DNA of 64,000 nucleotides from an uncultured delta proteobacterium (GCA_963782055.1 CAWAIF010000003.1:2304001-2368000); one strand, 5' to 3'. Shown: positions 12,567 through 28,417, numbered from the stretch's first letter. Notes: generated by a model not told the origin, from the letters alone. Translations and numbers: made by a program.

Positions 12567-13312
12567 CCTCATCGCTCGTTCAGCGGCTCGTGGTCGCGGT
12601 CGTTGCGGGCGCGTCGATCCTCACGGCACCGACCTTCGGGCGTACGACGCCGCAGGAGATCGCGAACGAGAAGCCCTGCCTTCCGCCGCCCAACTGCCAG
12701 ACCCCGAAGCAGTGCTGCGCCTTCAAGCACGACAGCCTCCTCCGCTTCGAGATGGCCAACGCGCGCGCGATGCGCGACTGGTTCGGCGATCAGTGCAACG
12801 GGGTGAAGTACCCGACCGGCCACGACCTCTCGGTGGCTGCGGACGCAGCCGCGAAGGCGACGACGGCGGCGATGGCGCTCGCGACGGGCGTGACAGCCGC
12901 CGATCAGGCGATGCACAACAAAGCCGTGAACGACTTGAAGCATCGAGACCCGACGACTGACCCGGAGTGGTGCGACACGAAATTCCCGCCCGGCTTCGAC
13001 CGTCTGGACGTCTGCAAGGAGATCCTCGACGCCGAGAGAGTGCACGAGAGCGAGCACCGAGACTTCTGCGAGGCGATGAGGACGCCTGCCATGAGGTCGG
13101 CGTATGGCTCGGTGTTCAGCACCCAGGCGCAGGCCGAGGACGAACGGCGCGGTCACGCCATCCAGTATCTGAACCTGGTCCAGAAGTACGAGAAGGCGCG
13201 GCGCCGCTGTCTGTCGAGCAAGCAGCTGCTCACGCCGGAGCTGGAGAGGAAATCGAAGCAGTCGGTCCGGCGGGCGTACCACTCGTATTTGCACGGGAGC
13301 CGCTGCGAGTGA
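12563..13312 (+). CDS. Secreted Cys-containing protein with HExxH motif
   Basis: Signal peptide; ERVHESEH with downstream EDE; ATGA overlap with upstream stop. Confidence 0.65.
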   Translation: MTSSLVQRLVVAVVAGASILTAPTFGRTTPQEIANEKPCLPPPNCQTPKQCCAFKHDSLLRFEMANARAMRDWFGDQCNGVKYPTGHDLSVAADAAAKATTAAMALATGVTAADQAMHNKAVNDLKHRDPTTDPEWCDTKFPPGFDRLDVCKEILDAERVHESEHRDFCEAMRTPAMRSAYGSVFSTQAQAEDERRGHAIQYLNLVQKYEKARRRCLSSKQLLTPELERKSKQSVRRAYHSYLHGSRCE

Positions 13313-14466
13313 GGCGCGCGCTCCTGCGCGTGGTGGCGCGGCCGTTCTCCTGGTCGCTCTTCGCGCTCGGCGCGGCGGTGATGCACGTCGCGTGCGGCGG
13401 GGGAGCCGGTGCGACGTCCAGCACCCCGAGAGTGCCGACGATGGCGCCCCCCGGCGCGACCGCTGTCACGCCCGGCGCGGACGCGAGCGCCGCCCCCGCG
13501 GCCCCGCGCGCGACGGACGACGACGCCGCATGGACGGCTGCCTTCGACCAGGTGTCGTGTCACGGGAGCGACCTCCAGCAGTGCGGGGCGCACGCCGTCG
13601 ATGTCGTCGACGCCTACGGCTCGCTCGTCACCGTCGAGGACACCCGCGATCGGCGCTCTGTCCCGATCGGGATCGAGGCGATCCACGGCGACGACGCCGA
13701 GCTCGTCGTCGAGGGCCTCCGCATCGTCGGGGCCTTTCCCCGCGAGCCCGGGGTGTACGAAGCCGTCCTCCCTCGCCTCGACGACCCGCGCCCGGTCGTG
13801 CAGCGCCTCGCGGCCAGCATCCTTTCGGACACCGAGCGGGGTGCGGAGCTCGCCAGGCAGTACCAGAAGGGCCACGAAGGGTCGCTCGATGGCGTGACCC
13901 CCGACACCCACGACCCGGTCCGTTCGCCGGCGACGTGGGGGTTTCCCGTGCTCACGCACGCGACGCCATACCCGCCGGGCGATGGTCCCACGTCGCTCGG
14001 CTACGCAACGACGGCGACCGTGGAGCAGGTCGCGTCGTTCTACGCGCAGCAGCCCGGCGCCAAGCGGATGACCCCGACGGATTACGAGCATCTGCGCTCG
14101 CAGGCCGTCAGCGCCGCGGCGCAACCGCCGGAGATGGCAGAGCTCAAGAAGCTCGAGAAGCAGCTCACCCAGACCGTTCAGGCCGGCCACCCCCCCGATC
14201 CGGCGGTTATCGAGAAGATGCGAGAGCTCTCCGCGAAGGCAACTCAGCGAGTGATGACGGAGAAGGACGTGACGCCCTACCCCGGCGACTCCGTCCTCGC
14301 GGCCGGGCAGTTCGTCGTCCTCACGATGGATCAGAACGTCCCCCGCCGCTGGGTGGCCGTGTACCAGGAGCCCGCGTACCATCGGACGATCGCGATCCTC
14401 GCGTGGTCGAGGGCGATCAGCCCCGCGCCGATGCCCGGACCGATCGTGCTCCACGGCTGGGACTGA
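13309..14466 (+). CDS. Lipoprotein, hypothetical
   Basis: GTGA overlap with upstream stop; HVA-C lipobox; Pro/Ala linker. Confidence 0.7.
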   Translation: MRRALLRVVARPFSWSLFALGAAVMHVACGGGAGATSSTPRVPTMAPPGATAVTPGADASAAPAAPRATDDDAAWTAAFDQVSCHGSDLQQCGAHAVDVVDAYGSLVTVEDTRDRRSVPIGIEAIHGDDAELVVEGLRIVGAFPREPGVYEAVLPRLDDPRPVVQRLAASILSDTERGAELARQYQKGHEGSLDGVTPDTHDPVRSPATWGFPVLTHATPYPPGDGPTSLGYATTATVEQVASFYAQQPGAKRMTPTDYEHLRSQAVSAAAQPPEMAELKKLEKQLTQTVQAGHPPDPAVIEKMRELSAKATQRVMTEKDVTPYPGDSVLAAGQFVVLTMDQNVPRRWVAVYQEPAYHRTIAILAWSRAISPAPMPGPIVLHGWD

Positions 14467-14560
14467 TGAGCGACACCGCCAGCCGCAGTGCACGGCCTCT
14501 CCGTGCGTCCGGGCGATCCTGACCCGGATGCCCCCCTCGAGGTTGGGTCTGGTGGGGCGC

Positions 14561-15106
14561 TCATGGGTCGAGCAGCGACTCGAACCGCCGGAACTCGTCG
14601 CGCATCGCCGCGCCCAGCTCGGAGATGCGCTTCCACCTGGGGCTCTCCCGCAGCTCGGCGCGGAGCTCCAGACACACGTAGCGGACGCAGATGTTCGGCC
14701 TCTGCTCGGGCGAGAGTGAGCACCCGGTCGCGCCTCGGAAGGCGCACCCCGCGTGGTCGTCACGCGGGGGTCGCAGATCGCGCGGGGCGACGCCCGCGAG
14801 CTTGAGCGACGCCACCTCGGTTTGCGTGAACAGATCGAGCGTGCGGCTCCCGCAGCACGCGCCGCCCTCCCAGTGGCCCTGCGGCTCCGGACGGCGCCGG
14901 CCACAGCCCCGGCACGCCTCGACGTCGGAGAACGCCTGCGACATCGCGACGCGCAGCTCACGGAGGCGCGCCGCGCTCGCCACGGCTTCGGCCCCCGCCG
15001 CGCGCGCGCCCGGCTGTCCGCGAAACCGCGCGCGGAGTGTCGAGAGCTCGGCAGCTCGCGAGCCCGGCGGGGCCCGGCGGAGGAGGCGCTCGATCGGCAG
15101 GAGCAT
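14561..15106 (-). CDS. Cys-cluster (YkgJ/CxxCxxCC-like) putative metal-binding protein
   Basis: CRGC...GACC...GCAF....GCSL...QRPNICVRYVC. Confidence 0.65.
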   Translation of the reverse strand: MLLPIERLLRRAPPGSRAAELSTLRARFRGQPGARAAGAEAVASAARLRELRVAMSQAFSDVEACRGCGRRRPEPQGHWEGGACCGSRTLDLFTQTEVASLKLAGVAPRDLRPPRDDHAGCAFRGATGCSLSPEQRPNICVRYVCLELRAELRESPRWKRISELGAAMRDEFRRFESLLDP

Positions 15107-15215
15107 GCCCGGATTGTCGCGCGAGGGGGCGCCGCACGCAATCGTCCACGCCCAGGCCAGACCGCTCCCGCCCCCGATGCGCACCGGCGTCGAGCTCCGC
15201 ATGAGCCGCCTCCGC

Positions 15216-16016
15216 TCAGGTCTCCTCGCGCAACAGGACGCCGCAGATCCGCGCCACGATCGCGAAGGCGAAGACGGACACGATCTGGCCGAGCGCCGCG
15301 GCGGCGACGCCGTCGCCCAGGATGCCGCGGGCGACGAAGGACGAACCGAGCCACAGCGCCGCCGCTGGCGTGAGACAGAGGACGGCCGTCAAGTATGGCA
15401 CCGGGATCGCGAGGATGACGCGGTAGGCGAGCAGCGGGTCGAGGATCGTCGCCCCCGACTGGGACGCGGCGATCAGCCCTGCGGGGAAGTAAAGGTATGC
15501 GAGCAGCAGCGCGCCCAGCGACACCTCCGCCGGCCAGCCGAGCGCCCACGCGACGACGGCCGGTGCGAGGCAGAACCCGACGAGGAAGAGGTACCGGACG
15601 ACGACCGCCGCCGCTTCCCCGCGATCGGCGATGGACGAGTCGACGCTGATCTCGTCCTCGCCCGCGGCGGTCGATCGCACGATGGCGAACATGATCGCGA
15701 AGAGCGTCCCGTACGACACGAGCACCGCCAGGACCGCATAGACGACGCCGAGAAACCCCGAGACCAGTGCCAGCACGACGGCGATCGGGAGGAGCAGCGC
15801 GAGCGACCGCGGGTGGAGCGGAAAGCCGTACGCGAGCAGCATCTCGAGGGCGAGCGGCCGCGACACGCGCGACTGCGCCATGCTCGTCTCCTTACGCACC
15901 GGATCGCCGCACGCGGCGCAGGTCTGCATGCCGCCCGTCGCGCCGACCTGGAGGCGCTTCGTCTCCGCCCAGGCCAAGGACCGGTTGCAGCGCGGGCAGT
16001 AGTAGGTGTCTTCCAC
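15216..16016 (-). CDS. Membrane protein with N-terminal zinc ribbon
   Basis: CPRC...CAAC followed by about six hydrophobic segments. Confidence 0.7.
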   Translation of the reverse strand: MEDTYYCPRCNRSLAWAETKRLQVGATGGMQTCAACGDPVRKETSMAQSRVSRPLALEMLLAYGFPLHPRSLALLLPIAVVLALVSGFLGVVYAVLAVLVSYGTLFAIMFAIVRSTAAGEDEISVDSSIADRGEAAAVVVRYLFLVGFCLAPAVVAWALGWPAEVSLGALLLAYLYFPAGLIAASQSGATILDPLLAYRVILAIPVPYLTAVLCLTPAAALWLGSSFVARGILGDGVAAAALGQIVSVFAFAIVARICGVLLREET

Positions 16017-16052
16017 GGCAGTCCGTCTCGATGGAACGGGGCCCCCAGGCGC

Positions 16053-16799
16053 CTATTCGCGGTGTGAGGCCACGAATCCGTACTTCTCGACGAGAAGGCG
16101 CGTGTAGCCCTGCACGTGCGCGCGCCCCATCACGACGACCGCGGCGCCTTCGCGTCGATGATCGGCGAGCATCTGCACGGTGCCGGCGGCCATGAGCTCG
16201 TCCCGAAGCGTGAGGATGCCCATCAGGGGGTGGATCATCCAGCTCCACGAGAACCGGCGAAGGAGGATCGCCGGCACGAGCAAGATCAGGTGCGCCTGAA
16301 GGGCGAGGACCGCCATCGTGATGATGGCGGCGAGAGCGGGTGACACCGGCGCGATCAGCGGCAAGAAGAGGCCGAGGAACGCGACGATGAAGAAGATGGT
16401 CATGTAGAGCGACGTCACGTGCAGGCCGAAGGGCACCTGCCGGGTTCGCTCCAGCTCCACCGTGTAGCCCGACGGGAGCTGCTTCGCCTCCGTGATCGTA
16501 CTGTCCTTGATCGCCCCGAGCGAGACGAAGCGCAGGAGGAGCCGTGGCGCGTGGACGAGGACGCCGAGCGTCCGGCCGAGGAAGATCTGCTTGCGCTGGA
16601 ACGTCTCGACGCCGCGCAGCTCGAAGGCCGCGACGACGGCGCGTCCGATCTCCGCCGCCTCCGCGAGCTTGAGGTGCGCCTCGCCGAGGATCGCGACGGT
16701 GCGTCCATCAGGGGCGCGCACGAGACGGACCGCGTAGCTGAGGTTCTTCTCGCGGGCGCGCTGGAGCGCCTCACGCGCGCGATCGGGCAGGTCGTCCAC
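16053..16799 (-). CDS. TraB/TIKI-like membrane protein
   Basis: ILGEAH, RDELMA, VVVMGRAHVQG motifs; two central TM helices. Confidence 0.6.
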   Translation of the reverse strand: MDDLPDRAREALQRAREKNLSYAVRLVRAPDGRTVAILGEAHLKLAEAAEIGRAVVAAFELRGVETFQRKQIFLGRTLGVLVHAPRLLLRFVSLGAIKDSTITEAKQLPSGYTVELERTRQVPFGLHVTSLYMTIFFIVAFLGLFLPLIAPVSPALAAIITMAVLALQAHLILLVPAILLRRFSWSWMIHPLMGILTLRDELMAAGTVQMLADHRREGAAVVVMGRAHVQGYTRLLVEKYGFVASHRE

Positions 16800-16902
16800 G
16801 CCGGGCAGCCTAGCAGTCGCGAGCCGGGGCGCTACAGCCCCCGTGTCCCTTCGGGCCGGAGCGGGACGGTCGGTGATCCCGCGGAGCGACGAGCACGCCG
16901 AC

Positions 16903-17532
16903 TCAGCCCCCGTCGCACATGGGGAAGACGAACTTCCAGAGACCGTCCTTGCACTGCTCCTCGATGTTGTTCACGCCCTTGCCGCACGACGCGTAGTCGC
17001 AGACCTGGCCGTCCTGCGCGCAGGGGACGCCGAGGTGAGGGCGCGGGGAGGGGCAGCCGGAGGGAGGGTCGTCGCAGGTCCAGACCGGGCCGCCGTCGGC
17101 GGTCGTACCGCCCTTGGTGTTGCACGAGCACGTGGCATCGGAGAAGAAGCAGTTCAGCGGCGACGAACAGGCGCCGCCGTGGGGGATGTCCGCGCTCGTC
17201 TGGGGGCACGACGTGTTGTTCGGCGCGCAGACATTGCTGACGGGTGGCGCGACGCTCCATCCCTGCGTGGTGCAGGTCGCCGTGCTGTTGCAATAGGTCC
17301 AGTCAAAGTCGCCGTACTCGCACTGAAGGGCCAAGGAAGTGCAGGGCGTCCCATCGCCGGGCATGGTGGTCGGACAGCCCGCGGACGCGTCCTGACCGGC
17401 TTCGGTCGGTCCACCGCCGTCGGAGTCGGCGTGGCCCGCGTCGGCGGAGGGCGAGGGGCCTTCGTCGCCGCAGCCCGCGGCGATGAAGGACGCGCACGAA
17501 AGCGCGACCAAGAGAAGGGGACGTGAGAGCAT
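16903..17532 (-). CDS. Cys-rich repeat lipoprotein
   Basis: IAAG-C lipobox; three CP...P..G..C....C.Y/F...C....W modules. Confidence 0.8.
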   Translation of the reverse strand: MLSRPLLLVALSCASFIAAGCGDEGPSPSADAGHADSDGGGPTEAGQDASAGCPTTMPGDGTPCTSLALQCEYGDFDWTYCNSTATCTTQGWSVAPPVSNVCAPNNTSCPQTSADIPHGGACSSPLNCFFSDATCSCNTKGGTTADGGPVWTCDDPPSGCPSPRPHLGVPCAQDGQVCDYASCGKGVNNIEEQCKDGLWKFVFPMCDGG

Positions 17533-17816
17533 CCCATGAGTCTATCCCATTCGGGATACGCCACAACCGGTGGCCGCCAGCCCCTTCGTGCGCTGGTGCG
17601 CGGTGAACGCGACTGTCCTTGCCAGGCAAAGGGAGCGCGCCGCAACCGATGGCCACGCAGCCCTTCGGGAGTACGGCAACGACCGCACGCAGCTCGCGTT
17701 CGCCCAGGGCGACGTCGTCGATCGCGACGCGGTGATCAAGCAACGATGCACCGGCGTCCGCGGCGCTCGCGCTCGACGCGGGCGCGGAACGCGAGCCCGA
17801 GCTCGTTCCCGGCCTC

Positions 17817-18740
17817 TCAATATCCGCGACCACGAGGGAGGAGGGTGGCCGGCGCCTCGCCGCGCTCCACCCGCGCCACGTTCTCGAGCGTGAGGCGCGC
17901 CAGACGCTCCGCGTAGTCGTGGGAGAAGCCGGCGACGTGCGGGGTGATCAGGAGACGCGGCGTCGTCCACAGCGGGCTGGAGTCGGGCAGCGGCTCCCGG
18001 GCGAAGACGTCCAGCGCCGCGCCGCGCAGGGCGTTCGACCGGAGCGCGGCGACAAGGGCCTCCTCGTCCACCACGCCCCCGCGCGACATGTGCACGAGCA
18101 CCGCGCCGGGCTTCATCGCGGCGAGCGCGCGCGCGTCGATCAGGCCCCGCGTACGGGGCGTCAGCGGCAAGGTGACGACCACGTAATCGGCCTCGGCGAG
18201 GAGCGCGTGGAGATCGTACGGCGCGCTCGCGCGGGCGGAGGTGACGCGCATGCCGAGCGCCGCGCACGCCTGCGCAACCGCACGGCCCGCTTCCCCGAGA
18301 CCCAGCACGCAGACCGTCTTGCCCTGCACCGATCCGACCGGCACATGGCGATAGACACGCGCGCGCTGGTCCTCGCCGAACTGCAGCAGCTCGCGCTCGA
18401 AGGCGAGGATCATGGCCAGGGCGTGATCGCGCATCTCCGGCACGTGGAGGCCGCGCGCGTTGGCGATCTGGACGCGATCGGGGAGGCCCTCCAGCGCGGC
18501 GAAGGACTCGCTGCCCGACCCGAGCACCTGCACGAGGACCAGCCGCGCGGCCCGCGCCCAGTCGACGCGCGGCGCGACGCCTGCGAGCAGCACCTCCACC
18601 CCTGCGATGCCCTCGCCGAGCTCGCGGTCGTCCACGAAGACGATGGATCGGCCCGCACGCTCGACGACGTCGCGCATGGTGTCGCGCGTCTCGCCGGGGC
18701 CGAGCCACGCGTGGATCGTGCCGAGGCGGTGTGACATCAT
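17817..18740 (-). CDS. D-2-hydroxyacid dehydrogenase family protein
   Basis: VLGLGEAG, LPLTPRTRGLI, MKPGAVLVHMSRGGVVDE, AALDVF..EPL, ITPHVAG. Confidence 0.9.
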   Translation of the reverse strand: MMSHRLGTIHAWLGPGETRDTMRDVVERAGRSIVFVDDRELGEGIAGVEVLLAGVAPRVDWARAARLVLVQVLGSGSESFAALEGLPDRVQIANARGLHVPEMRDHALAMILAFERELLQFGEDQRARVYRHVPVGSVQGKTVCVLGLGEAGRAVAQACAALGMRVTSARASAPYDLHALLAEADYVVVTLPLTPRTRGLIDARALAAMKPGAVLVHMSRGGVVDEEALVAALRSNALRGAALDVFAREPLPDSSPLWTTPRLLITPHVAGFSHDYAERLARLTLENVARVERGEAPATLLPRGRGY

Positions 18741-18747
18741 CGCCGCA

Positions 18748-19911
18748 ATGTACCAGGCAGACGCACTCCCGCGGCGCGCGCTGCTCGGTCTGCAGGTGGG
18801 CGCCGAGGCGCGCGTGGAGCGCGTGGTCGACGGCGGCGCGGCGCGCGCGGCGGGCGTGCTCCAGGGCGATCGCATCCTGACGGTCGACGGCGCGGCGGTG
18901 CACGACGCGCGGCAGCTCACCGCGGCAGCGCGCGGCGTCCGCGCCGGGGCTAGCGTCGCCTTTCGCGTGGAGCGGGACGGTGCGGCTCGCGCGCTCTCCG
19001 GGATCGCGCCTCCGTACCCGGTCGAGGAGGGCGTGCTCCTCGGCCACGTCACCTCACGCGGGGCCCGGCTGCGAACCTTCTACGCCATCCCGCGCGACGG
19101 GGAGAAGCTCCCGGCGGTGCTCTACCTGCAGGGCGTCCGGACGGAGTCGGTGGAGTCGCCGTTCGATCCGGCGAGCCCCACGCGCGCCCTGGTGTCTGCG
19201 CTGGTGGCGGCGGGCTTCGTCGTCATGCGCGTGGAGCGAAGCGGCGTGGGCGACAGCGAGGGACCGACCCCGCGCGAGACCGGCCTCGCCGCGGAGATGG
19301 ACGCCTACCGCGCCGCGCTCGCGGATCTGCGCGCCTTCGACGAGGTGGATCCCGACCGCATCCTGCTCTTCGGTCACAGCTTCGGTGGCATGGTCGCGCC
19401 GCTGCTGGCGCGCGAGACGGCCGTCGCCGGGATCGCCGTGTTCGGCACCTCCGCGCGGCGCTGGCACGACGCCATGCTGGGCACCACCCGTCGCCAGCGC
19501 GAGCGCGGCGAGGAGGAGATGGCGCGGTGGGAGGAGCTCTTCGACCGCGTGCATCGCGACGGGCTCACGCCAGCTCGCGCCTTCGAGCTTCACCCGCACC
19601 TGCGCGTCTTGCGCTCGCGCGACTGCGAGGGCGAGACCATGTACGGGCGGCACGTCTCCCTGTTCCAGGAGCTGGACGGCGCGGACCTGCAGGACGCGTG
19701 GCGCGGCGTGAAGACGCCTGTGGTCGCGATGCACGGCGAGCACGACTGGATCTGCACCGCGGAGGACGCCGGTGCGGTGGCCGCGCTCTCCGGCGGTCGC
19801 CACGTGGAGCTGGACGGCACCTCGCACGATCTCACGCGCGACGGCGCGTTCGACCCGCGGATCGCTCAGACGACGACGGCGCTGCAGCCACCGGGGAACA
19901 CGCAGCCGTAA
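18748..19911 (+). CDS. PDZ + alpha/beta-hydrolase protein
   Basis: PDZ-like AARAAGVLQGDRILTVDG; SGVGDSEG, GHSFGG nucleophile elbow, HGEHD, SH. Confidence 0.85.
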   Translation: MYQADALPRRALLGLQVGAEARVERVVDGGAARAAGVLQGDRILTVDGAAVHDARQLTAAARGVRAGASVAFRVERDGAARALSGIAPPYPVEEGVLLGHVTSRGARLRTFYAIPRDGEKLPAVLYLQGVRTESVESPFDPASPTRALVSALVAAGFVVMRVERSGVGDSEGPTPRETGLAAEMDAYRAALADLRAFDEVDPDRILLFGHSFGGMVAPLLARETAVAGIAVFGTSARRWHDAMLGTTRRQRERGEEEMARWEELFDRVHRDGLTPARAFELHPHLRVLRSRDCEGETMYGRHVSLFQELDGADLQDAWRGVKTPVVAMHGEHDWICTAEDAGAVAALSGGRHVELDGTSHDLTRDGAFDPRIAQTTTALQPPGNTQP

Positions 19912-20306
19912 GGCGGCGGCGGCGGACCCCAGCCGTCGTCCTCCACCACGTCGGCGGAGGCGTCGCTGCCTCCGGCGTCGGCGGTCGCGTCGCTCGCGGC
20001 GTCCGCCTGGGCCATGCCGTCATCGGCGGCGTCCTTGGCCGCGCCGTCCCTGGCGTTGCCGTCGGTGGAGCTGCCGTCGGTCGAGGCGTCGGTGCCGGTC
20101 GTCGTGTCGCCGCCGCAGGCGACGGCCACGCCCATCGTCGTGGCGAGGGCCGCGGCGTGGAGGGCATACAGCTTCGCGCGGGAGAGACCGCGGGGGGCAC
20201 GGGGGGCCGGCTTCGCGGCGGGCGCGGCGGCGGCGCAGAAGGGGCAGCGCGCTTCGCCCGGGCGGAAGTGACGCTCGCAGGCGGCACAAAGCAGGAGGTC
20301 AGTCAT
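19866..20306 (-). CDS. Zinc-ribbon/lipoprotein-like protein with C-terminal PPPPP-YG; candidate radical SAM substrate
   Basis: CAAC..HF.....CPFC, LSRA, hydrophobic stretch ending VAVA-C, Asp/Ala/Gly linker, GWGPPPPPYGC; start overlaps the rSAM stop. Confidence 0.8.
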   Translation of the reverse strand: MTDLLLCAACERHFRPGEARCPFCAAAAPAAKPAPRAPRGLSRAKLYALHAAALATTMGVAVACGGDTTTGTDASTDGSSTDGNARDGAAKDAADDGMAQADAASDATADAGGSDASADVVEDDGWGPPPPPYGCVFPGGCSAVVV

Positions 20307-21585
20307 CGGCAGAGTCTACCTCGACCACGAGCTCCCATCGAGCGCGATCGAAGGGCAAACCGGGCGCCTCCTCCACCCGCGCCACCCGCTCGCGCTTGCC
20401 CTCGCGCTTCATCTCCAGGGCGCGGTGGTGGCAGTACGGGTTGTTGCCCGGCTTGCCAAAGAGCGCGGTGGTCATCCAGGTGCACCCCGCGCGGCACTCC
20501 TCCGCGTAGTAGCACCCGGCGCAGAAGCCCCAGAGCTCGCGGGTGGTGCGATCGCGCATGTGGCGCAGGGGCGCGCTGCGCTCCCAGATCGCGCGCAGGG
20601 TGTGCTCGCGCACGTTGCCGCCCACCCACGAGTCGGTCGGGAGCGAGGGGCAGCCCTTGACGTCGCCGTTGGACTCGATGCCCAGCGTGGTGAGCCCCGC
20701 CGCGCACGAGCGCCGGTAGCCGCTGCGGCAGTAGCTGCGCAGCACGTGCTCGTACGGACCGAAGTAGCCCACGTTGTTGCCCGCGAGCATGGTGACGGAC
20801 CGCGCGTCGCAGCGCTTCTTCAGCTCGGCGAGCAGCGGAAAGAGGTCGAGCAGATCGTACGGCTGCAGGATGACGTCCGGCTCGTCCGCGGCGCGGCCGA
20901 CCGGCACGGTGAGCTGGATCTGCCAGCCGTGGCACCCCTCGCGCGAGAGCACGTCGAAGACGTGATTCAGGTGCGGCGCGCTCAGGCGGTTGACCTGCGT
21001 GTTGACCGCGATCGCGATGCCCGCCTCGCGGCAGTGCCGGAGCGCGGCCACGGCGGCGGCGTACGAGCCGGGCGAGGCGCGCAGCCTGTCGTGCGTCGCC
21101 TCGTCGCCGTCGATGGAGACCGCGACGCTCTGCACGCCTGCGGCCGCGGCGGCCTCCGCGCGCGCCCGCGTGAGGCCGCGCCCCCCGGTCACCATGGTGC
21201 TGGTCATCCCCAGCCTGCGGATCTCGGCGATGACGTCCAGCCACCCGTCGTGAAGGTAGGCCTCGCCGCCGATGAGGGTGATCTCCTGCACGCCCAGCTC
21301 GTGCATCTGCCGCACCAGGTCGACGGCCTCGTCGGTGGTGAGCTCGTCCGGCCGCGCGCGTCCGGCCCGCGATCCACAGTGCCGGCACGAGAGGTCGCAG
21401 GCGAGCGTCAGCTCCCACACCGCGTAGTTGGGCCGCGCCGCGCGATCGATCGCGCGTGTCTCGCCGGCGAGGGGCAACCGCACCTGCGTGCGCGCCTCCT
21501 CCAGCACCGGCAGGGCGCGCCGCGGACGCGGGGCGCGCATGAGCGCTTCGCGCGCGCGCTCGTCCAGGGGCTCTGCGCGCGGCAT
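20299..21585 (-). CDS. Radical SAM/SPASM maturase, PlpX/TIGR03913-like (putative splicease)
   Basis: VWELTLACDLSCRHCGSRAG (CxxxCxxC), GGE, SIDG, GNNVGYFGPYE, SPASM C-x-GIESNGDVKGCPSL...WGFCAGCYYAEECRAGC...GNNPYCHHRAL. Confidence 0.85.
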   Translation of the reverse strand: MPRAEPLDERAREALMRAPRPRRALPVLEEARTQVRLPLAGETRAIDRAARPNYAVWELTLACDLSCRHCGSRAGRARPDELTTDEAVDLVRQMHELGVQEITLIGGEAYLHDGWLDVIAEIRRLGMTSTMVTGGRGLTRARAEAAAAAGVQSVAVSIDGDEATHDRLRASPGSYAAAVAALRHCREAGIAIAVNTQVNRLSAPHLNHVFDVLSREGCHGWQIQLTVPVGRAADEPDVILQPYDLLDLFPLLAELKKRCDARSVTMLAGNNVGYFGPYEHVLRSYCRSGYRRSCAAGLTTLGIESNGDVKGCPSLPTDSWVGGNVREHTLRAIWERSAPLRHMRDRTTRELWGFCAGCYYAEECRAGCTWMTTALFGKPGNNPYCHHRALEMKREGKRERVARVEEAPGLPFDRARWELVVEVDSADD

Positions 21586-21701
21586 TCGCGGAGTATACCA
21601 GCGCCGGGCGGTGCGCGCGGGACTGCGACGTTCTGCCGCGGCGTCGCGCACCTGGAGTGCGAGGCGGCGATTGTCCCGCCGGATTGTCGTACTCTCCGCG
21701 C

Positions 21702-22238
21702 ATGAGACGAGGGTTTCTCTTCGGTGTCGGCGCCACCATCCTGGCTCTGATCGTCGGCGCGTGGGTCACGGTGGCGTTCGGGCTCATGCCGGCCAACGCC
21801 GACGCGAAGCCCCCCGGCCTGGAGGCGTGGGCGGCGAAGAAGTCGCTCCACGCCACCATCGCCCGCGAAGCACCGAAGGGGGACAACAAGGTCCCTCTCA
21901 CCGACGCGAACCTCATGGCCGGGGAGAAGCTGTACATGCAGAACTGCGCCGTCTGCCACGGCGGCTCCGACGGATCGCCCTCCGTCATCGCGCGCGGGCT
22001 CTACCAGGAGGCGCCGCAGCTCGCGAAGGACGGCGTGGAGGACGATCCGGCGGGCGTGACGTACTGGAAGATCGCCCACGGCATCCGCTTCACCGCGATG
22101 CCCAGCTTCGGCCGCGCGCTGACCGACGAGCAGGTGTGGCAGCTCACGCTCTTCGTCTCGCACATGGACAAGCTGCCGCCGGCGGTGGACACGGTGTGGC
22201 GGCAGGCGCCGGGCACGCCGGCCGCGCCCGCGCCCTGA
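21702..22238 (+). CDS. Monoheme c-type cytochrome
   Basis: N-terminal TM helix, NCAVCHG, GIRFTAMPSF (axial Met). Confidence 0.9.
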   Translation: MRRGFLFGVGATILALIVGAWVTVAFGLMPANADAKPPGLEAWAAKKSLHATIAREAPKGDNKVPLTDANLMAGEKLYMQNCAVCHGGSDGSPSVIARGLYQEAPQLAKDGVEDDPAGVTYWKIAHGIRFTAMPSFGRALTDEQVWQLTLFVSHMDKLPPAVDTVWRQAPGTPAAPAP

Positions 22239-22361
22239 CCGGTTGCGTGCGAAGGGCCAGAGCTGCGGCACGCCATCGCTTGTAACCCCATGTAATGCGC
22301 GTCCCGGCCGCGGCCGCGTACAATCGTGCTGGGTTCACCTTTCTTGCGCGAGGAGATCCGC

Positions 22362-23492
22362 ATGAAGCTGCGCTGGCTGGTCGGGATCGTCGGGCCGCTG
22401 CTGCCCCTCTTGTACGTGGCGTGCAGCACTCATGACGCCAGCTTCGACGGCGGGACGGCATCGCCGGATGCCGGTGACGACGTGGACTACCCCGACGTGT
22501 CGCAGGTGCTCCCGGACGCCGGCCCTCCCGACAGCTCGACGGACGACGGCCCCTACTGTCCTCCGGCACCGCAGGGCGACGGCGGGCTGGGCGTGCTCCT
22601 CGCGGCCCCCTTCCAGAAGGACTACGCGCTCTACGATCTCGGGGCGCCTCCGGGAGTTCCGGACCCGCTCGGGGGCTGCACCATCGACTGGAAGGACGAC
22701 AACACCCTCCTCATCGTCGGTCACTCCGAGGACCCTGCCACCGCCATCTACTCCATCAAGATCAAGCGGGACGCGTGCGGTCACATCATCGGCTGGGACG
22801 GCACGGCGACGCAGGTCGCCACCGCGCCCTACGCCGACGCCAACCTCGTCTATCTGGGGTCGGCGGTGGACGGCGGCTCGTCGGGCAACCTGCTGGTCTA
22901 CTCGGAGTGGCCCAACGCCGGGATGGGCCAGCTCCTGCCGGGTGGCACGTCACCGGCGCGTGAGACCGACCTCTCCGCGCTCGGCCTGATCGCGCAGGGA
23001 TCGCTGGGCGGCCTGGGCGTCGTGCCGGCGGGCTTCACGGGGGCGGGTCAGCTGCGCGGCCTCACTTATCCCGTCTACGGGAGCGTCAGCGAGTGGCACC
23101 ACATCCAGATCGGCGCCGACGGTCAGCTGGTGAAGGTGGGGACGGTCACGCCGACGCTGAAGCTCTGCGACGGGTGCGGGTCCGGCGGCTTCGCCTACGT
23201 GCCGGCGGGCTCGCCGGACTTCCCCAAGGAGAGCGTGCTCGTCGCGGAGTGGGACTACGCCAACCTGACGCGCGTCTCCGGCTACAATGTCGACACCAAC
23301 GGCGATCCCGTGGTCGCCACCCGCTTCGACTTCCTCACGCAGTTCAAGAGCCCCTACGGCGCGTACTTCGACCGGGTGAGCGGCGACTACGTCTTCGTCC
23401 AGTGGCAGTTCACCTCCGAGAACCTGGCCGACCACGTGCTCGTCGTGCGCGGGTTCAACAAGCCGCCGCCGCCTCCGCCGCCGCCGAACTGA
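22362..23492 (+). CDS. Beta-rich (possible propeller) lipoprotein with poly-Pro C-terminus
   Basis: GAGGAG upstream; YVA-C lipobox; ends KPPPPPPPPN. Confidence 0.75.
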   Translation: MKLRWLVGIVGPLLPLLYVACSTHDASFDGGTASPDAGDDVDYPDVSQVLPDAGPPDSSTDDGPYCPPAPQGDGGLGVLLAAPFQKDYALYDLGAPPGVPDPLGGCTIDWKDDNTLLIVGHSEDPATAIYSIKIKRDACGHIIGWDGTATQVATAPYADANLVYLGSAVDGGSSGNLLVYSEWPNAGMGQLLPGGTSPARETDLSALGLIAQGSLGGLGVVPAGFTGAGQLRGLTYPVYGSVSEWHHIQIGADGQLVKVGTVTPTLKLCDGCGSGGFAYVPAGSPDFPKESVLVAEWDYANLTRVSGYNVDTNGDPVVATRFDFLTQFKSPYGAYFDRVSGDYVFVQWQFTSENLADHVLVVRGFNKPPPPPPPPN

Positions 23493-23609
23493 ACACCGTC
23501 GCGCCGCCAGGGGCGCCCCGGAAGGCTCGCGGCTCGCGGAAAAGCGCGCTTGAATCGCGCACTCACCGTGCGTTGCTATTCACGCCTGCATATGTATCCT
23601 GGCTGCAGC

Positions 23610-24569
23610 ATGCTGCACGTTCTTCGGATCACGCTCGCGGCACTGCTCCTGGGGGGGTGCGTCGGGGATACGCCCAACGGCGACGACGCTTCGACCAATG
23701 GCAATGTCGCTGCCGAAGCGGCCGTGGACGCGTCGGACGACGTCGCGTTCGACGCCGCACCGGAGATCGGGGACGCGGCGTCGTGTACGCCGGACGCGAA
23801 TTTCTGCATCGGCGATCTGCTCCAGAAGTGCAACGCGCAGGGAACGGCGTCGTCCCTCGTGACCGATTGCACGACGCTCGGCGAGAAGTGCGTGAACGCC
23901 GAGTGCGAACTCGACGGCCTCGTGGCGCACTGGAAATTCGACGAAGGCACGGGCACCGTGGCGAAGGACTCGTCCTCGACGCACGCCGACGCGACGGTGA
24001 TCGGCGCGACCTGGACGGTCGGCAAGTACGGCGGCGCGCTCTCGTTCTCCGGCAGCGGTACCTACGTCGACGCGGGCGATGTGCTCAACAATCTGACCCT
24101 TCCCATCACAGCGATGATGTGGGTCAACATGCCCGACAACGGCAACGGCGGATTCGGGCTGTTTTCGTCGGACGACGGCAGCACCAACACTGCGGGGTGG
24201 TCCGTTCAGACCGCGTTCGGGCCCGCCGATGGAGGGCTGGCCAACGGGCTCGTGTTCGCCAGGTACGGCGACGACACGTGCAACTGTCTCGCGGGCCGCC
24301 GCGTGGGAGCCGGACCGATACTCGGCACGGGCAAGTGGCAGCACCTGGCGTTCGTCATCCAGGGCCCGAGCAACATGACCTTCTACCGCGACGGCGTTGG
24401 CCTCTCGGCCACCTCGTACAGCGGCACGGGCGGCACGATGAAGTCCAACGCCAGCCCCTTTCGGATCGGCGTCGACGGCGCCGGGTACTTCGTCGGCTCG
24501 ATCGACGACGTGCGCGTCTACAGCCGCGCCCTGTCGCAGACCGAGATCCAGACCGCGATGGCGAACTGA
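23610..24569 (+). CDS. LamG/concanavalin-like domain lipoprotein
   Basis: LLGG-CVGD; LVAHWKFDEG.G..A.DSS, GKYGGAL.F, WQHLAFV, F.GSIDDVRVYSRALS. Confidence 0.9.
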   Translation: MLHVLRITLAALLLGGCVGDTPNGDDASTNGNVAAEAAVDASDDVAFDAAPEIGDAASCTPDANFCIGDLLQKCNAQGTASSLVTDCTTLGEKCVNAECELDGLVAHWKFDEGTGTVAKDSSSTHADATVIGATWTVGKYGGALSFSGSGTYVDAGDVLNNLTLPITAMMWVNMPDNGNGGFGLFSSDDGSTNTAGWSVQTAFGPADGGLANGLVFARYGDDTCNCLAGRRVGAGPILGTGKWQHLAFVIQGPSNMTFYRDGVGLSATSYSGTGGTMKSNASPFRIGVDGAGYFVGSIDDVRVYSRALSQTEIQTAMAN

Positions 24570-24864
24570 CGCTCCTCGCACCTTCGCGGTGGACGCGCAG
24601 AAGTGCCGGTGTGCGAGGGACGCATGAAGCGCGCCGGGATGGTGCAGGAGCCGCGCGGCATCCAAGAGGGTTCTCGAGGGGCCCGGCGAGCCGCACGAGG
24701 TCCCGCCGCCCGGGGCCCGCGCTCCGCCCCACGATCGGCAAGCGCCGTCATCCGCCGCACACGAATCGGCGGAACGACGAGGCGAGACGCGCCCGGTGGG
24801 GGGGGTGCGTCTCTGGGCGCGCTGCTTGCAATCCCCGCCCGCGCCGACCACTCTCCCGCTCGCG

Positions 24865-25623
24865 ATGAAGTCGCCTACCCTCGCTCTCGCCGCCAGACAC
24901 GTCCGCGCGGGTTGCGGCGTGCTGCTCATGGTCGGGTGCGGTGGTGGGAGCGGCCCTCCACCTGCGTCGCCTGCGGCCACAGAGGTGCGCCTGCCCGTCG
25001 CGCCTGCACCTTCGGCCTCGTCCGCGAAGCCGGCCGTCGCCGCGTGCCCGGCCCCCGCCGGCGCCGTCTCCGGGACGGAGCCGGACGATGCCTGCGGCGA
25101 CGCGCAGGCGTGCGAGCGCGCCTGTGACGCGGGCGGCGCCCCGGCGTGCGTGACCGCAGGCAACATGGACGCGGTGACAGACCACCCGGACCGTGGCAAG
25201 GAGCTGCGGCTCTACGAGCGCGCGTGTCGTCTGGGCAACGTGCTCGGGTGCACCAACTATGGTGCGACGGTGCGCCTGCAGCGCCACGACCCGTCGAGCC
25301 TCGCGTGCGCCGCCAGGCTCTTCGGGCTCGCATGCGCCGCCAGCGAGGCGGAGGGTTGCGCCATGGCCGGTGCGGCGTATGCCCGGGGCGAAGGCGTCCC
25401 GCAAGATCGCTCCAGGGCGCTGGAGGCGCTCCTCAGAGGCTGCGACAGCGCGCTCGACCAACCCGACGGCGTGGCGACGGCGTGCGAGTACCTGGTGGGC
25501 GTCCTGCAGACCGTGCCGTCGAATCCGCTCGTGTCGCAGGCCATCGACCGAGCGACCCGCATCGGGTGCCGCGCCGGCTCCGCGAAGCTGTGCGCCGCGC
25601 CGGGAAGCAGCGCGCCGCCGTGA
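24865..25623 (+). CDS. Sel1-like repeat lipoprotein
   Basis: LMVG-C; repeats YERACRLG...GC.N.G and AC......GC..AG..Y..GEGVPQD..RA. Confidence 0.85.
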   Translation: MKSPTLALAARHVRAGCGVLLMVGCGGGSGPPPASPAATEVRLPVAPAPSASSAKPAVAACPAPAGAVSGTEPDDACGDAQACERACDAGGAPACVTAGNMDAVTDHPDRGKELRLYERACRLGNVLGCTNYGATVRLQRHDPSSLACAARLFGLACAASEAEGCAMAGAAYARGEGVPQDRSRALEALLRGCDSALDQPDGVATACEYLVGVLQTVPSNPLVSQAIDRATRIGCRAGSAKLCAAPGSSAPP

Positions 25624-25641
25624 CGTGTGGTCGTGGCCGTG

Positions 25642-27327
25642 TCAGAGGTTCATCCAGAAGGTGAATTGCTGCGCCTCGTCGCTCGACGAGCATGTCGCGA
25701 CGTCGAGCGCGGCGCCATCGCGGGAGAGACAGCGGCTCTGGTCGAAGTGCTGGACGCGACCGCGCAGGGCCCACATCTGCTCCACCGTGTCGTCGCAGTT
25801 GCCGACCACGACGCTCGCGCTGGCCCCCGCGTCGGCGCCGCCGTCGAGCGACAGACAGCGCGGCGTCGCCGTCGCCACCGCGCTCACGAAGCCCCCGCGC
25901 CCGTCGTCCCAGCGCTGGCCCGCGCTGCCGTCGCACACCTGGAGCGTCACCTTCGTGCCCTTCGCCGCGCTCCCGGCGTCGACGCACCAGCCGTCGACGC
26001 GGAGCTCGCCCGTCCGCGGCCTGTAGTCGAACCGCTGATTCGCCGCGCCGTGACATGGCCACTGGATCAGGTGCTTGCCCGCGCCGTAGTCCGCGGCGGG
26101 GACATCGAGGCAGTAGCCGGTGTTCCCGTTGACGACCTCCTCGTTGCGAAAGCGCCAGATCTGATCGCTGCCATCGCACGACTGCTGTCTCACCGCCGCC
26201 CCCGACTCCGTCGCGTCCGGTTGGACGCACTCGTCACTGCCGTAGTTCTCGAGGTAGCGGTCCTTCGTCATGAACCAGTTCTGTCTCGCGTTGGTCTTGC
26301 TGCAGGTCGCCATCTGCAGGGCGACGCCGTCGACGTTCGACGGGGGCTCGGCGCAGCGGCCGCCGTTCTGCAGCGTGCCGGTCCACCACCACTTCGCGTA
26401 CGGCCCCGACGCGGCACCCTTGCACGCGCCGGCGTCGCACGTCGCTCCGGCGCCGCAGCCACCGCAGCTCAGCGCCTTGCCGCAGTTGTCGCTCGCGCTC
26501 ACCGGGCCGCACGCGAGGCCGAGCTGCGCGCACGTCTTGGGGGAGCAGCTCTTCACCTGACACGTCGACCACTGATGGTTCGACTGGCACGTCTTCGTGG
26601 CCCCGCCGCCGCAGCCGGCCGTGGTCTTCTCTCCGATGTCGGAGCAGACGTTCTTGGCGCGAATCAAGCAGTGGAAACCGAGCCCGTAGCGGCCTTCGAT
26701 GGTCCCGTTCGCGTACCTGGTGTGGTCCTCGACGAGCAGCTCGGTGCGATCGGTCCAGATGGCGTTCTGCTGGTAGAACCACACCTTCGACGTGGCGCTG
26801 TCGTAGGAGGAGACCACGACCGTGTGACCGTGGAAGACGATCACGTCGCCCGACTCCGGCTCCGGGACGTGCGAGCCCTGCGTGTACACGTCGAAGTTGG
26901 GGTTGCCGCCGTACTGGTTCGCCCCGCACATCGTGCCCGTGTAGATGTGGTTGCCGATGTCGTACTTCGCGCCCATCGCGCGGAAGTGTCGCATCACCAG
27001 ATCGGTGCACTCGAAGGCGCGCCCGGTGGTGGCCTTGGCGCCGTTGCAGGTGTCGCCGTTCGAGCAGCAAGCGTGCCCGGTCGAGTTCTTCGGGCCGTTG
27101 GACAGCACCTCGGTGCCCCAGAACGCGTGACCGGTGTCGGTCCCGCACTTGCCGACGCCCTTGCAGACGACGGCCCCCTTGTACGTGCCGCTGGTGGGGG
27201 TGAAGCATCCGCTCGCCTTCAGGGGCGAGCCGGATTGCCCGGGACTCGGGTCGCTCTCCACGGCACACCCCGCCATGACGATGGCGAAACCCAGGACCAC
27301 GGAGGCGATCTTCTTCGAGGAGGACAT
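25642..27327 (-). CDS. Lipoprotein with CHAP-like domain, Cys-rich linker and two ricin-B lectin domains
   Basis: MAG-C; FECTDLVMRHF, P..GDVIVFHGHTVVV, FYQQN; CSPKTCAQLG..CG...DNCG..LSCGGC; many CLDV / Q.W motifs. Confidence 0.8.
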   Translation of the reverse strand: MSSSKKIASVVLGFAIVMAGCAVESDPSPGQSGSPLKASGCFTPTSGTYKGAVVCKGVGKCGTDTGHAFWGTEVLSNGPKNSTGHACCSNGDTCNGAKATTGRAFECTDLVMRHFRAMGAKYDIGNHIYTGTMCGANQYGGNPNFDVYTQGSHVPEPESGDVIVFHGHTVVVSSYDSATSKVWFYQQNAIWTDRTELLVEDHTRYANGTIEGRYGLGFHCLIRAKNVCSDIGEKTTAGCGGGATKTCQSNHQWSTCQVKSCSPKTCAQLGLACGPVSASDNCGKALSCGGCGAGATCDAGACKGAASGPYAKWWWTGTLQNGGRCAEPPSNVDGVALQMATCSKTNARQNWFMTKDRYLENYGSDECVQPDATESGAAVRQQSCDGSDQIWRFRNEEVVNGNTGYCLDVPAADYGAGKHLIQWPCHGAANQRFDYRPRTGELRVDGWCVDAGSAAKGTKVTLQVCDGSAGQRWDDGRGGFVSAVATATPRCLSLDGGADAGASASVVVGNCDDTVEQMWALRGRVQHFDQSRCLSRDGAALDVATCSSSDEAQQFTFWMNL

Positions 27328-27400
27328 GAGCGGACCCTACACGCCGCGGACCCGACGGTCCTTGCCCGGGGGCGCCAATCTCTTGCCCGTGGACGCGCGA

Positions 27401-28417
27401 TCACGTCTTTGGCGGGCGCGCGCGCCGGAACTCGGTCGGCGAGACTCCGCGCCAGCGCTTGAACGCCCGCGTGAACGCCGCCGGCCCGTTGAAGCCCACC
27501 GAGAAGGCGATCTCCTGCATCGAGAGCGCCCCCGCTTCGAGCTCGCGGACGGCGTGCTCCTCGCGCATCCGGTCGATGAGACGCTGGTAGGTCAGTCCTT
27601 GCTCGCCGAGCGCGCGCTGCAACGTCCGTTCACCGACGCCCAGTCGCGTCGCGAGCGTCGCGAGCGAGAGGCTGGAGTCGGAGAGGAGGTCCGGGATCAG
27701 CCGGCGCGCCCGGTCGAGCAAGTCGCGCTCCGACGGGACACGCGCGAGCAGATCGTCCGCGTGACGCCGCACAAGCCGGTGCAGCGCGAAGTTCGCCGAC
27801 ACGAGCGGGAGCGACAGCAGCTCCGCGCCGAAGACGAACTCGCCGACGGGTTGGGCGAACTCGACCGGGCACCCGAAGAGCGCCTCGTGCTCGCGCGCGT
27901 CGCTCGGCGCGCTCCGCATCAGGCGAACGACGCGAGGGTGGAAGTCCCCGGTCGTGGCGGCGCGGAAGCGCTTGAACGCTCCGGAGAAGAAGTAGTCCCA
28001 CGCGTGGACGAGCGGCTCGACCCAGCTCGGGGCGATCCAGTGCTGGAAGCGCGCGACGCCGCCGTCCACGACCAGCCCGATGCGCCAGATGTCGGTGATG
28101 ACGCGGTAGTACCGTTCGACGGCGCGACAGCCGTCACCCAGCGTCGGCGCGGTGAGAAAGAGGTAGTCGAGCACGTCGTAGCTCCCGAGCTCCGCGTGCT
28201 GCCCCGCGTGGAGGCCGAAGAAGGGATCGCCGCTCATCTCCGGCGCGAGGCCCCACGCCTGGGCGAGCACGACGGTGGGAATCGACGTGTCGATCTCGAG
28301 CTGGGCGGACGTCACCCCGACGCGTGAGCAGAGCTCGCCGGGGGCGACCCCCAGGGCCTTCGCGGAGCGCGTGAGCGCACGCAGCAGAACCATCGCGCTC
28401 GAGCCGGGTGCACGCAT
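27401..28417 (-). CDS. AraC family transcriptional regulator
   Basis: GDPFFGL..G, FGCPVEF; HTH LATRLGVGERTLQR...IAFSVGF...AFTRAFKRWRGVSP. Confidence 0.92.
   Translation of the reverse strand: MRAPGSSAMVLLRALTRSAKALGVAPGELCSRVGVTSAQLEIDTSIPTVVLAQAWGLAPEMSGDPFFGLHAGQHAELGSYDVLDYLFLTAPTLGDGCRAVERYYRVITDIWRIGLVVDGGVARFQHWIAPSWVEPLVHAWDYFFSGAFKRFRAATTGDFHPRVVRLMRSAPSDAREHEALFGCPVEFAQPVGEFVFGAELLSLPLVSANFALHRLVRRHADDLLARVPSERDLLDRARRLIPDLLSDSSLSLATLATRLGVGERTLQRALGEQGLTYQRLIDRMREEHAVRELEAGALSMQEIAFSVGFNGPAAFTRAFKRWRGVSPTEFRRARPPKT

Follow-up and report, generated by a model that had tools for sequence, protein, structure and literature searches.

A 64,000-nucleotide stretch of DNA from an uncultured delta proteobacterium (GCA_963782055.1, CAWAIF010000003.1:2304001-2368000; the whole stretch is called the window) carries on its minus strand a gene for a radical S-adenosylmethionine (SAM)/SPASM enzyme, followed by an open reading frame (ORF) for a protein of 146 residues, here called the partner. 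By analogy with characterized systems, this locus is probably a two-gene 'binary' splicease system in which the small protein is spliced at P132-Y133-G134. Excision of tyramine at X-Y-G (XYG) sites has been demonstrated experimentally for the enzyme PlpX (PMC11414181 and PMC11626197), and the window shows the arrangement that defines this functional class: a PlpX-like radical SAM/SPASM enzyme whose gene adjoins that of a precursor with a conserved X-Y-G. A first-pass annotation of the window had described a radical SAM/SPASM gene that overlaps a 146-residue ORF by 8 bp, and both the genes and their overlap are indeed present.

All of the enzyme motifs quoted in that annotation occur in the protein (AVWELTLACDLSCRHCGSRAG, GNNVGYFGPYE and GNNPYCHHRAL), and Pfam recognizes both a Radical_SAM domain (PF04055; 71.8 bits, cut-off 29.5) and a SPASM domain (PF13186; 36.5 bits, cut-off 21.5). 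C-terminal SPASM domains have about seven Cys for auxiliary clusters, and in the 63-sequence enzyme alignment (A2) seven Cys from residue 294 to 385 are invariant. Compared with curated family models, the enzyme scores best with TIGR04103, nif11-class peptide radical SAM maturase 3 (466 bits, cut-off 725, profile positions 3-379 of 412), and second best with TIGR03913, GDL motif peptide-associated radical SAM/SPASM maturase (422 bits, cut-off 591.75, profile positions 18-389 of 477). The next family, TIGR04133, reaches 157 bits (cut-off 425), followed by the cofactor enzymes AhbD (heme b synthase; 151.6 bits, cut-off 500), NirJ (heme d1 biosynthesis; 114.7 bits, cut-off 515) and PqqE (pyrroloquinoline quinone, PQQ, biosynthesis; 90.2 bits, cut-off 381). 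A comparison of splicease with heme and PQQ models had been proposed as a check on the annotation, and it comes out on the splicease side. As judged from these profile scores, the enzyme belongs in the clade of TIGR04103 and TIGR03913; because it lies below the cut-offs of both, it forms a sister clade and is the equivalog of neither. We take TIGR04103, not TIGR03913, to be the counterpart of IPR026482 and hence the PlpX type. The original label 'PlpX-type, TIGR03913-related' stands in so far as splicease-type models score best, and needs correction in its pairing of PlpX with TIGR03913. PlpX, the founding tyramine 'splicease', is printed as a member of IPR026482 in PMC11002830.

The partner has every element that had been ascribed to it: a CxxC...CPFC zinc ribbon, a hydrophobic segment that ends in Cys, a spacer and a single C-terminal YG. 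Its N-terminus reads MTDLLLC-AA-C-ERHFRPGEAR-CPFC, that is, C7-A-A-C10 ... C21-P-F-C24, and continues through a basic linker (…KPAPRAPRGLSRAK) into the hydrophobic run LYALHAAALATTMGVAVA and C64; an Asp-, Ala-, Gly- and Thr-rich spacer then leads to the C-terminal stretch DDGWGPPPPPYGCVFPGGCSAVVV. The protein has two Tyr residues and one YG, encoded at 19910-19905. In an alignment of the window subfamily of partners (A1; 63 sequences, a conserved column being one of at least 90% identity), R43 and C64 are invariant, and L41, S42, A44 and G65 are conserved, as are A48, A52 and A53 of the hydrophobic segment. The sole conserved columns between G65 and P131 are two near-invariant Asp residues, D73 and D119. 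Conservation then resumes with P131, P132, Y133, G134, C135, V136, F137 and P138, and includes the final V146. The G+C content at third codon positions (GC3) of the partner gene is 0.91, compared with 0.86-0.93 for neighbouring genes, and the protein collection holds 57 homologues, every one of them unnamed or 'hypothetical' and without any Pfam domain. On account of this codon composition, these homologues and the near-invariant columns at both ends of the alignment, we regard the ORF as a real gene. Family scans of partners with NCBIfam and Pfam gave nothing above cut-off except MopE motifs in one class; Pfam zinc-ribbon matches to the ribbon are weak and under their cut-offs.

Relatives of the locus were surveyed with one genome per species, which yielded 80 loci, mostly from Myxococcota where the lineage is named; the window itself (L001) and two loci with distant radical SAM paralogues (L003 and L004, 27-30% identity) were left out of the counts. 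With the paralogous locus of the same genome and the window, the 80 loci make 82 sources. A strict partner pattern, C..C.{6,20}C[PA]FC, found 91 small partner proteins across 67 of the 82, and a looser pattern found partners in 5 of the 15 remaining sources, giving 72 of 82. The survey was extended to 12 more loci in other families of the phylum, all of which have a partner (12/12). In the combined survey, a neighbour with ribbon, hydrophobic segment and Cys, acidic tail and YG thus stands at 84 of 94 homologous Myxococcota loci, which is the outcome that the first-pass annotation had anticipated for such a search. The partner counts were taken from direct pattern scans, because the crude GC3-based gene caller used for neighbour clustering missed many small ORFs. 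Clustering of neighbours with that caller found no third gene family conserved across loci; a gene for a PDZ-hydrolase alone recurred, at nine related loci. Since no other family is conserved, the locus would be a two-component system, as in the binary spliceases that work without a Y protein. Matches resembling TIGR03913 at E <= 1e-60 were found in 56 of 151 sampled genomes of the phylum, and matches over its cut-off in none of the 151.

In keeping with earlier claims that no PqqD or RiPP recognition element (RRE) gene is adjacent (RiPP, a peptide made by the ribosome and then modified post-translationally) and that the substrate is no Nif11-leader peptide, a scan of 15 ORFs at 12967-28417 with Pfam and NCBIfam detected no member of the PqqD/RRE family, no Nif11/NHLP-leader precursor and no PlpY/PqqD-like partner. 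The absence of a Y or RRE protein is normal for non-cyanobacterial 'binary' spliceases, according to PMC11414181.

The genome that contains the window has a second enzyme copy (L002, G000:C3:5943428-5947750) with 57% identity to the window enzyme. Three tandem zinc-ribbon/anchor genes immediately precede it on its own strand, and each of their products has two x-Y-G-G/A-P-P motifs. The genome encodes five members of the partner family in total, four of them beside one of the two enzyme paralogues; the fifth, at G000:C3:119020 (+), is an orphan with no nearby enzyme. A quick maximum-likelihood tree was built from 94 enzyme rows, tblastn matches under 330 residues having been dropped and rows for PlpX and RhaX not being included. 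The window enzyme falls into a six-row clade (support 98 in the Shimodaira-Hasegawa-like approximate likelihood ratio test, SH-aLRT) whose partners all have YGxVFP, and a separate clade of 20 rows includes 17 partners that combine an LAAC-YG motif with a MopE motif. Of 25 tree rows labelled 'none', 12 represent loci that were unscanned at the time of labelling and in which partners were later found. Because kin share labels, the match between enzyme and partner classes counts as consistency and not as independent co-evolution. Two variations in gene arrangement were also seen. Partners of the 'LAAC-YG' class (L047, L052, L055, L059, L064 and others) are divergently transcribed and have a single YG directly after the anchor Cys (LAACYG), followed by a MopE-type, Cys-rich metal-binding tail (PF11617). 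At four Polyangium loci (L006, L008, L010 and L011) two enzyme genes flank a single YGCVFP partner gene, and the upstream enzyme falls in a different part of the tree, at the end of a very long branch (1.3 changes per column); on its opposite strand, L011 encodes an additional partner whose ribbon has CPHC.

The YG itself has the marks of a selected element. Of the 263 Tyr residues in the tails that follow the ribbon, 196 precede a Gly, against a Gly share of 14.7% among tail residues. The residue before YG is chiefly Ala (46), Leu (42), Pro (26), Cys (20), Val (16) or Met (11), the two positions past it are mostly Gly or Ala and then Pro (118 of 196), and most family members have YG repeats without a nearby Cys. 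At least one YG is found in all 91 strict-pattern partners, and PPYGCVFP is near-invariant in the window subfamily; the lack of conservation that had been named as a ground for rejecting the annotation is thus not what we observe. We conclude from these patterns that YG is an element kept by selection in partner tails. The flanking residues also recall published splice tags derived from PlpA (Table 1 of PMC10533398), of which GAVAAGYGVVFPG resembles the YGxVFPG of window-type partners and GPIRPLYGLPI resembles the xYG[G/A/L]P of other partners.

The zinc ribbon provides a further connection to splicease-type enzymes. Four of 34 partners have weak matches (E 0.01-0.08) to positions of about 427-461 in the 477-position TIGR03913 profile, and two whole-genome TIGR03913 matches extend past the stop codon into the ribbon positions. 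A search of 1.84 billion representatives identified relatives of ~475-503 residues with an extra C-terminal ribbon, CxxC…C[PH][HF]C. Among these, P0186 matches TIGR03913 at 771 bits over profile positions 3-473, which makes it a true member of that family, and it is 46% identical to the window enzyme. Compared by hhalign, the partner ribbon and the enzyme-fused ribbon (P0186 residues 437-471) match with a probability of 95.2% and E 2.9e-8 over 35 columns, so that, on profile comparison, the partner ribbon is homologous to the C-terminal ribbon of true TIGR03913 enzymes. Other representatives run, in the stretch examined, from the enzyme core directly into a hydrophobic segment with Cys and then an acidic tail with 4-10 YG. 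Because these natural fusions join them, the ribbon, the anchor and the YG tail appear to be functionally tied to the enzyme. The enzyme-substrate fusions comprise P0231, P0247, P0267, P0271, P0227, P0250, P0285, P0289 and P0323, several of which finish in CC-x-C-D-Y-G-x-P-P-P-x-CC.

Around relatives of P0186, 80 metagenome loci (L097-L176) contain 20 ORFs with a GDL pattern, distributed over 16 loci. In 17 of the 20, [P/L]-Y-G-V occurs 9-11 residues ahead of the GDL, as in IPPYGVAIQEAVASGDLARMK, and the remaining three have Y-A or Y-M at the place of the YG. Some GDL motif peptides form the C-terminal part of proteins of ~200 residues. Because its GDL peptides have a conserved [P/L]-Y-G-V, TIGR03913 is likely a splicease family too. 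As PlpX acts at XYG and the GDL peptides carry YG, both families that flank the window enzyme would then go with XYG precursors. The migration of a ribbon between enzyme and substrate may be new.

To describe how the two proteins could meet, we co-folded the enzyme (alignment A2; 63 sequences, mean column identity 61%) and the partner (A1) with three 4Fe-4S clusters and SAM. The complex scores 0.87, and the best control 0.00; among solved complexes 116 of 157 attain that mark, as do 2 of 215 mismatched pairs, counts that are approximate given the custom alignments and the inclusion of small molecules. Contacts agree to at least 67% over three model runs. Among the confident contacts of the model, partner residues 3-14 and 22, which are those of the ribbon and chiefly R12 and H13, lie against enzyme residues 275-292 and 359-363, placing the ribbon on the GYFGPYE/SPASM face of the enzyme. 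Further contacts come from partner residues 32-54, which span the linker, the LSRA motif and the beginning of the hydrophobic helix and set R43 beside enzyme residues 54 and 101. Residues 125-140 reside inside the barrel, where the YG is beside V56 and enzyme residues 101-105, and G134 is beside residues 56 and 103 (expected error 2.2 A). The model thereby supports, without proving, binding of the partner via its ribbon with the YG in the barrel. Richter et al. (PMC11414181) report AlphaFold2 models of PlpX, PcpX and RhaX that have the XYG sites at the active centre; those authors had no experimentally determined spliceotide protein structure to draw on. An initial guess that the zinc ribbon serves as the recognition element gains support both from the modelled docking and from the homology to the TIGR03913-fused ribbon.

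Several features suggest that the remainder of the partner leaves the cytoplasm. The hydrophobic segment of the window partner has a lipobox-like end, A-V-A-C64. A lipobox, [LVI][ASTVI][GAS]-C, stands at the end of an N-terminal signal peptide. Among the 72 family members that could be parsed, 70 have Ala or Gly just ahead of the anchor Cys, and for the basic linker the median net charge is +2 over the loci set and +4 over A1. After the Cys, the stretch CGGDTTTGTDAS resembles lipoprotein-like N-termini of ORFs in the window, for example FIAAGC-GDEGPSPSADAG and LLYVAC-STHDASFDGG. MopE motifs (PF11617; 31.5-40.2 bits, cut-off 27) are found in 6 of 35 scanned partners, which go with another enzyme clade; disulfide-rich motifs of the MopE type are typical of extracytoplasmic proteins. 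From these sequence features, the partner tail is likely exported, and we give about even odds to lipidation and cleavage at C64.

These elements can be combined into a working mechanism. The cytoplasmic enzyme would bind the nascent partner through the N-terminal zinc ribbon and the LSRA/helix segment, which would play the part of a RiPP leader or of the activating helix of PlpY. The conserved C-terminal P132-Y133-G134 would then be threaded into the active site and, as with PlpX-type enzymes, a tyramine equivalent (C8H9NO, 135.06 Da) excised, leaving a Pro-derived alpha-keto-beta-amino amide ahead of a C135...C141 loop. The hydrophobic segment ending in Cys64 could act either as an N-in anchor or as a lipoprotein-type signal whose n-region, made unusually long, holds the zinc ribbon, and would carry the disordered acidic tail across the inner membrane, so that the electrophilic keto-amide is displayed at the cell envelope. 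In this scheme the chemistry, modification before export, the lipidation or cleavage at Cys64 and any role such as protease inhibition are inferred.

A number of points weigh against this proposal. The chemistry rests wholly on analogy, with no modification observed here, and the enzyme stays under both curated splicease-type cut-offs. No partner is found in 10 of the 82 sources, several of which are on contigs that end near the enzyme. XYG sequences are not always spliced, as the DYG site of RcsA is left unmodified (PMC11626197). The complex is a model in which the predicted local distance difference test (pLDDT) values of the partner are low, about 53-56. As to export, the anchor Cys has a median position of 60 (range 44-82), unlike that of ordinary lipoprotein signals, and 19 of the 91 family members could not be parsed for a lipobox, several having Asp before the Cys, as in NDCGG. 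The fused relatives cannot be classical prolipoproteins, because in them the enzyme precedes the hydrophobic segment. Finally, because the enzyme is cytoplasmic and the tail is predicted to be exported, modification would have to precede export.

One alternative retains the YG as the target and changes the reaction, for example to a C-C or C-S cross-link, an epimerisation or a hydroxylation. SPASM enzymes elsewhere, such as the sactipeptide and ranthipeptide maturases, are established makers of thioether or carbon cross-links, two conserved Cys residues (C135 and C141) flank the site, and an enzyme under both named-family cut-offs, ~46% identical to a true TIGR03913 member, might have taken on a chemistry of its own. 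We nevertheless consider a different reaction unlikely, given the wide gap to non-splicease families (466 versus 157 bits), the resemblance of the core motifs to proven splice tags and the YG repeats without nearby Cys in most family members. An explanation in terms of cofactor biosynthesis, with the pair serving a pathway of the heme d1, heme b or PQQ type and the small ORF encoding an unrelated membrane protein, is highly improbable: the matches to AhbD, NirJ and PqqE (152, 115 and 90 bits) on which it would draw lie far under their cut-offs (500, 515 and 381) and under the splicease models, and the divergent cytochrome c gene that adjoins the enzyme (21657-22238) is not among the neighbour families conserved across loci.

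The partner might also be a C-terminal module (ribbon and anchor) split off from the enzyme, which it would tether or activate at the membrane, while the true substrate is encoded elsewhere. We see a slim chance of this. Near-invariance of PPYGCVFP and the 75% coupling of Tyr to Gly in the tails would be left unexplained by such a module, as would the placement of the YG in the modelled barrel, and no further gene family is conserved across loci, the PDZ-hydrolase alone recurring, at nine related ones. In its favour are the homology of the ribbon to a domain that TIGR03913 enzymes themselves contain, the 8-bp gene overlap, and the fact that GDL peptides with YG have genes of their own at TIGR03913 loci. 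Taken together, the evidence favours a binary splicease that acts on the partner at P132-Y133-G134.

Table 1. Features of the enzyme-partner locus, with positions counted from the first nucleotide of the window.
Feature	Position	Strand	Basis
Radical SAM/SPASM enzyme, putative splicease-clade maturase	20299..21585	-	ORF; Pfam, NCBIfam; alignment A2
CxxxCxxC radical SAM cluster motif CDLSCRHC (C63/C67/C70 of the 428-residue protein)	21376..21399	-	All three Cys invariant in A2
SPASM region with seven invariant Cys (C294, C312, C355, C358, C364, C368, C385)	20431..20706	-	Pfam SPASM; A2
8-bp overlap of enzyme stop and partner start, ATGACTGA	20299..20306	-	Sequence
Partner/putative substrate, 146 residues (zinc ribbon, basic linker, hydrophobic segment-Cys, acidic spacer, C-terminal YG core)	19866..20306	-	ORF; 57 homologues; alignment A1
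Zinc ribbon C7..C10 / C21-P-F-C24 with R12-H13, predicted docking module	20235..20288	-	C7, C10, R12, H13, C21, P22, F23, C24 at least 90% (A1)
L41-S-R43-A motif, hydrophobic segment (residues 47-63), C64-G65 (lipobox-like AVAC/G)	20112..20186	-	A1 conservation
Asp/Ala/Gly/Thr-rich spacer, variable in length and sequence	19929..20111	-	A1
C-terminal core GWGPPPPP-Y133-G134-CVFPGGCSAVVV; proposed splice site P132-Y133-G134	19869..19928	-	A1; complex model

The positions of these features are collected in Table 1. The enzyme ORF opens at a first GTG (20299..21651 on the minus strand, 450 residues); started from the Met at 21585 that the earlier annotation implied, the protein has 428 residues. 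The overlap string is common to the enzyme TGA (20301-20299) and the partner ATG (20306-20304), and this arrangement suggests that the two genes are translationally coupled. The window has ~70% G+C throughout, and a scan of 19600-21900 for promoters and terminators gave no candidates, as expected at such base composition.

Convergent with the partner gene, and overlapping its 3' end by 46 bp, is the gene for the PDZ plus alpha/beta-hydrolase protein (18745-19911, plus strand). The Pfam domains of this protein are PDZ_2, Hydrolase_4/S33 and Peptidase_S15; comparison with homologues sets its start at MYQADALPRR, and it has no signal peptide. The nine loci at which it recurs (the window, L005, L006, L008, L010, L011, L029, L036 and L044) all lie within the enzyme clade whose partners finish in ...YG[C/G]VFP...Val. 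The PDZ domain could bind the C-terminal Val of the partner, and a poly-Pro/keto-amide end could be either processed by a Pro-directed serine hydrolase or an inhibitor of it; the recurrence may equally be a matter of shared synteny. Lipoprotein-like or secreted proteins are encoded around the locus at 25642-27327 (-), 23550-24569 (+) and 16903-17532 (-), and among these ORFs one encodes 561 residues with three ricin-type lectin repeats, another a Laminin_G_3 protein and a third 209 residues rich in Cys. None of the lectin, Laminin_G_3 and Cys-rich genes is conserved beside the enzyme at other loci.

Ribosomal routes to beta-amino acids and keto-amide warheads are rare, and tyramine splicing is one of them. 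If the favoured reading is correct, the export or anchor signal of the substrate itself would place spliced products at the cell envelope, where they might trap or inhibit serine and cysteine hydrolases of prey, of competitors or of the producer. A wider generalization is possible, and we offer it tentatively: about a third of Myxococcota genomes might make 'spliced envelope proteins', which would be disordered, acidic, lipid- or membrane-anchored and equipped with electrophilic alpha-keto-beta-amino residues. In such proteins a ribbon-extended export signal would do the work of a RiPP leader, with Sec, Lgt and LspA as exporter and leader peptidase, and the ribbon module would have moved between the enzyme (TIGR03913) and the substrate (window locus), with loss in fusions. 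An engineered enzyme-leader fusion made splicing leader-independent, as reported in PMC11414181; because the ribbon is a natural counterpart of this construct, it could be a compact docking tag for protein engineering.

Much of the background is already known, namely XYG tyramine splicing by PlpX-like enzymes, binary systems without a Y protein and a published catalogue of systems. In print, 939 splicease systems are predicted (PMC10533398), and YG-rich ORFs beside PlpX-like enzymes extend over 189 genera, with 27 confirmed pairs (PMC10849128). Final spliceotide natural products had not been identified from any native host when the field was reviewed in 2022 (PMC9811515). Our literature search, whose coverage did not extend to the text of Scott et al. 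2022, found no account of Myxococcota spliceases, none that joins tyramine, radical SAM and zinc ribbon, and none that names the TIGR models or accessions; for the GDL motif together with radical SAM it led to a paper on Chromobacterium quorum sensing. The precursor architecture may be new, with its ribbon for docking, its export or anchor segment whose Cys is invariant and its acidic tail bearing YG; if Scott et al. 2022 already cover Myxococcota precursors, the finding shrinks to another member of a catalogued type.

Among known systems, PlpX/PlpY with PlpA from Pleurocapsa (type I) likewise pairs a radical SAM/SPASM enzyme with an X-Y-G substrate, and TIGR04103 is the best model for the window enzyme. 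The window differs in that it has neither a Y/RRE protein nor a Nif11/NHLP leader, and has instead a precursor with a ribbon and a hydrophobic segment ending in Cys; X is Met or Leu at the PlpA sites, whereas it is Pro in the window partner. The type II binary systems of Rheinheimera (RhaX/RhaA, RcsX/RcsA and RasX/RasA) also have two components without a Y protein. An N-terminal element of their precursors is likewise predicted to dock on the enzyme (PMC11414181), and two Cys residues around the site could form a disulfide (PMC11626197), as with the two Cys of the window site. The docking element of the Rheinheimera precursors is, however, the alpha-helix of a leader on a soluble peptide, whereas in the window it would be a zinc ribbon plus juxtamembrane helix on a signal or anchor protein. 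Bacterial prolipoproteins processed by Lgt and LspA share with the partner a basic stretch, an Ala/Val/Gly-rich run, an [A/G]-Cys and a linker rich in Gly, Asp, Thr and Ser; the partner departs from them in that its Cys, at position 64, lies behind a predicted folded zinc ribbon, and in that some relatives have Asp at -1. Finally, the TIGR03913 systems, whose model is second best for the window enzyme, have a homologous ribbon and GDL peptides with [P/L]YGV; the window partner itself has no GDL motif, the window as a whole not having been searched for one. In TIGR03913 systems the ribbon forms the C-terminus of the enzyme and the substrates are separate soluble GDL peptides, whereas at the window locus the ribbon heads the putative substrate.

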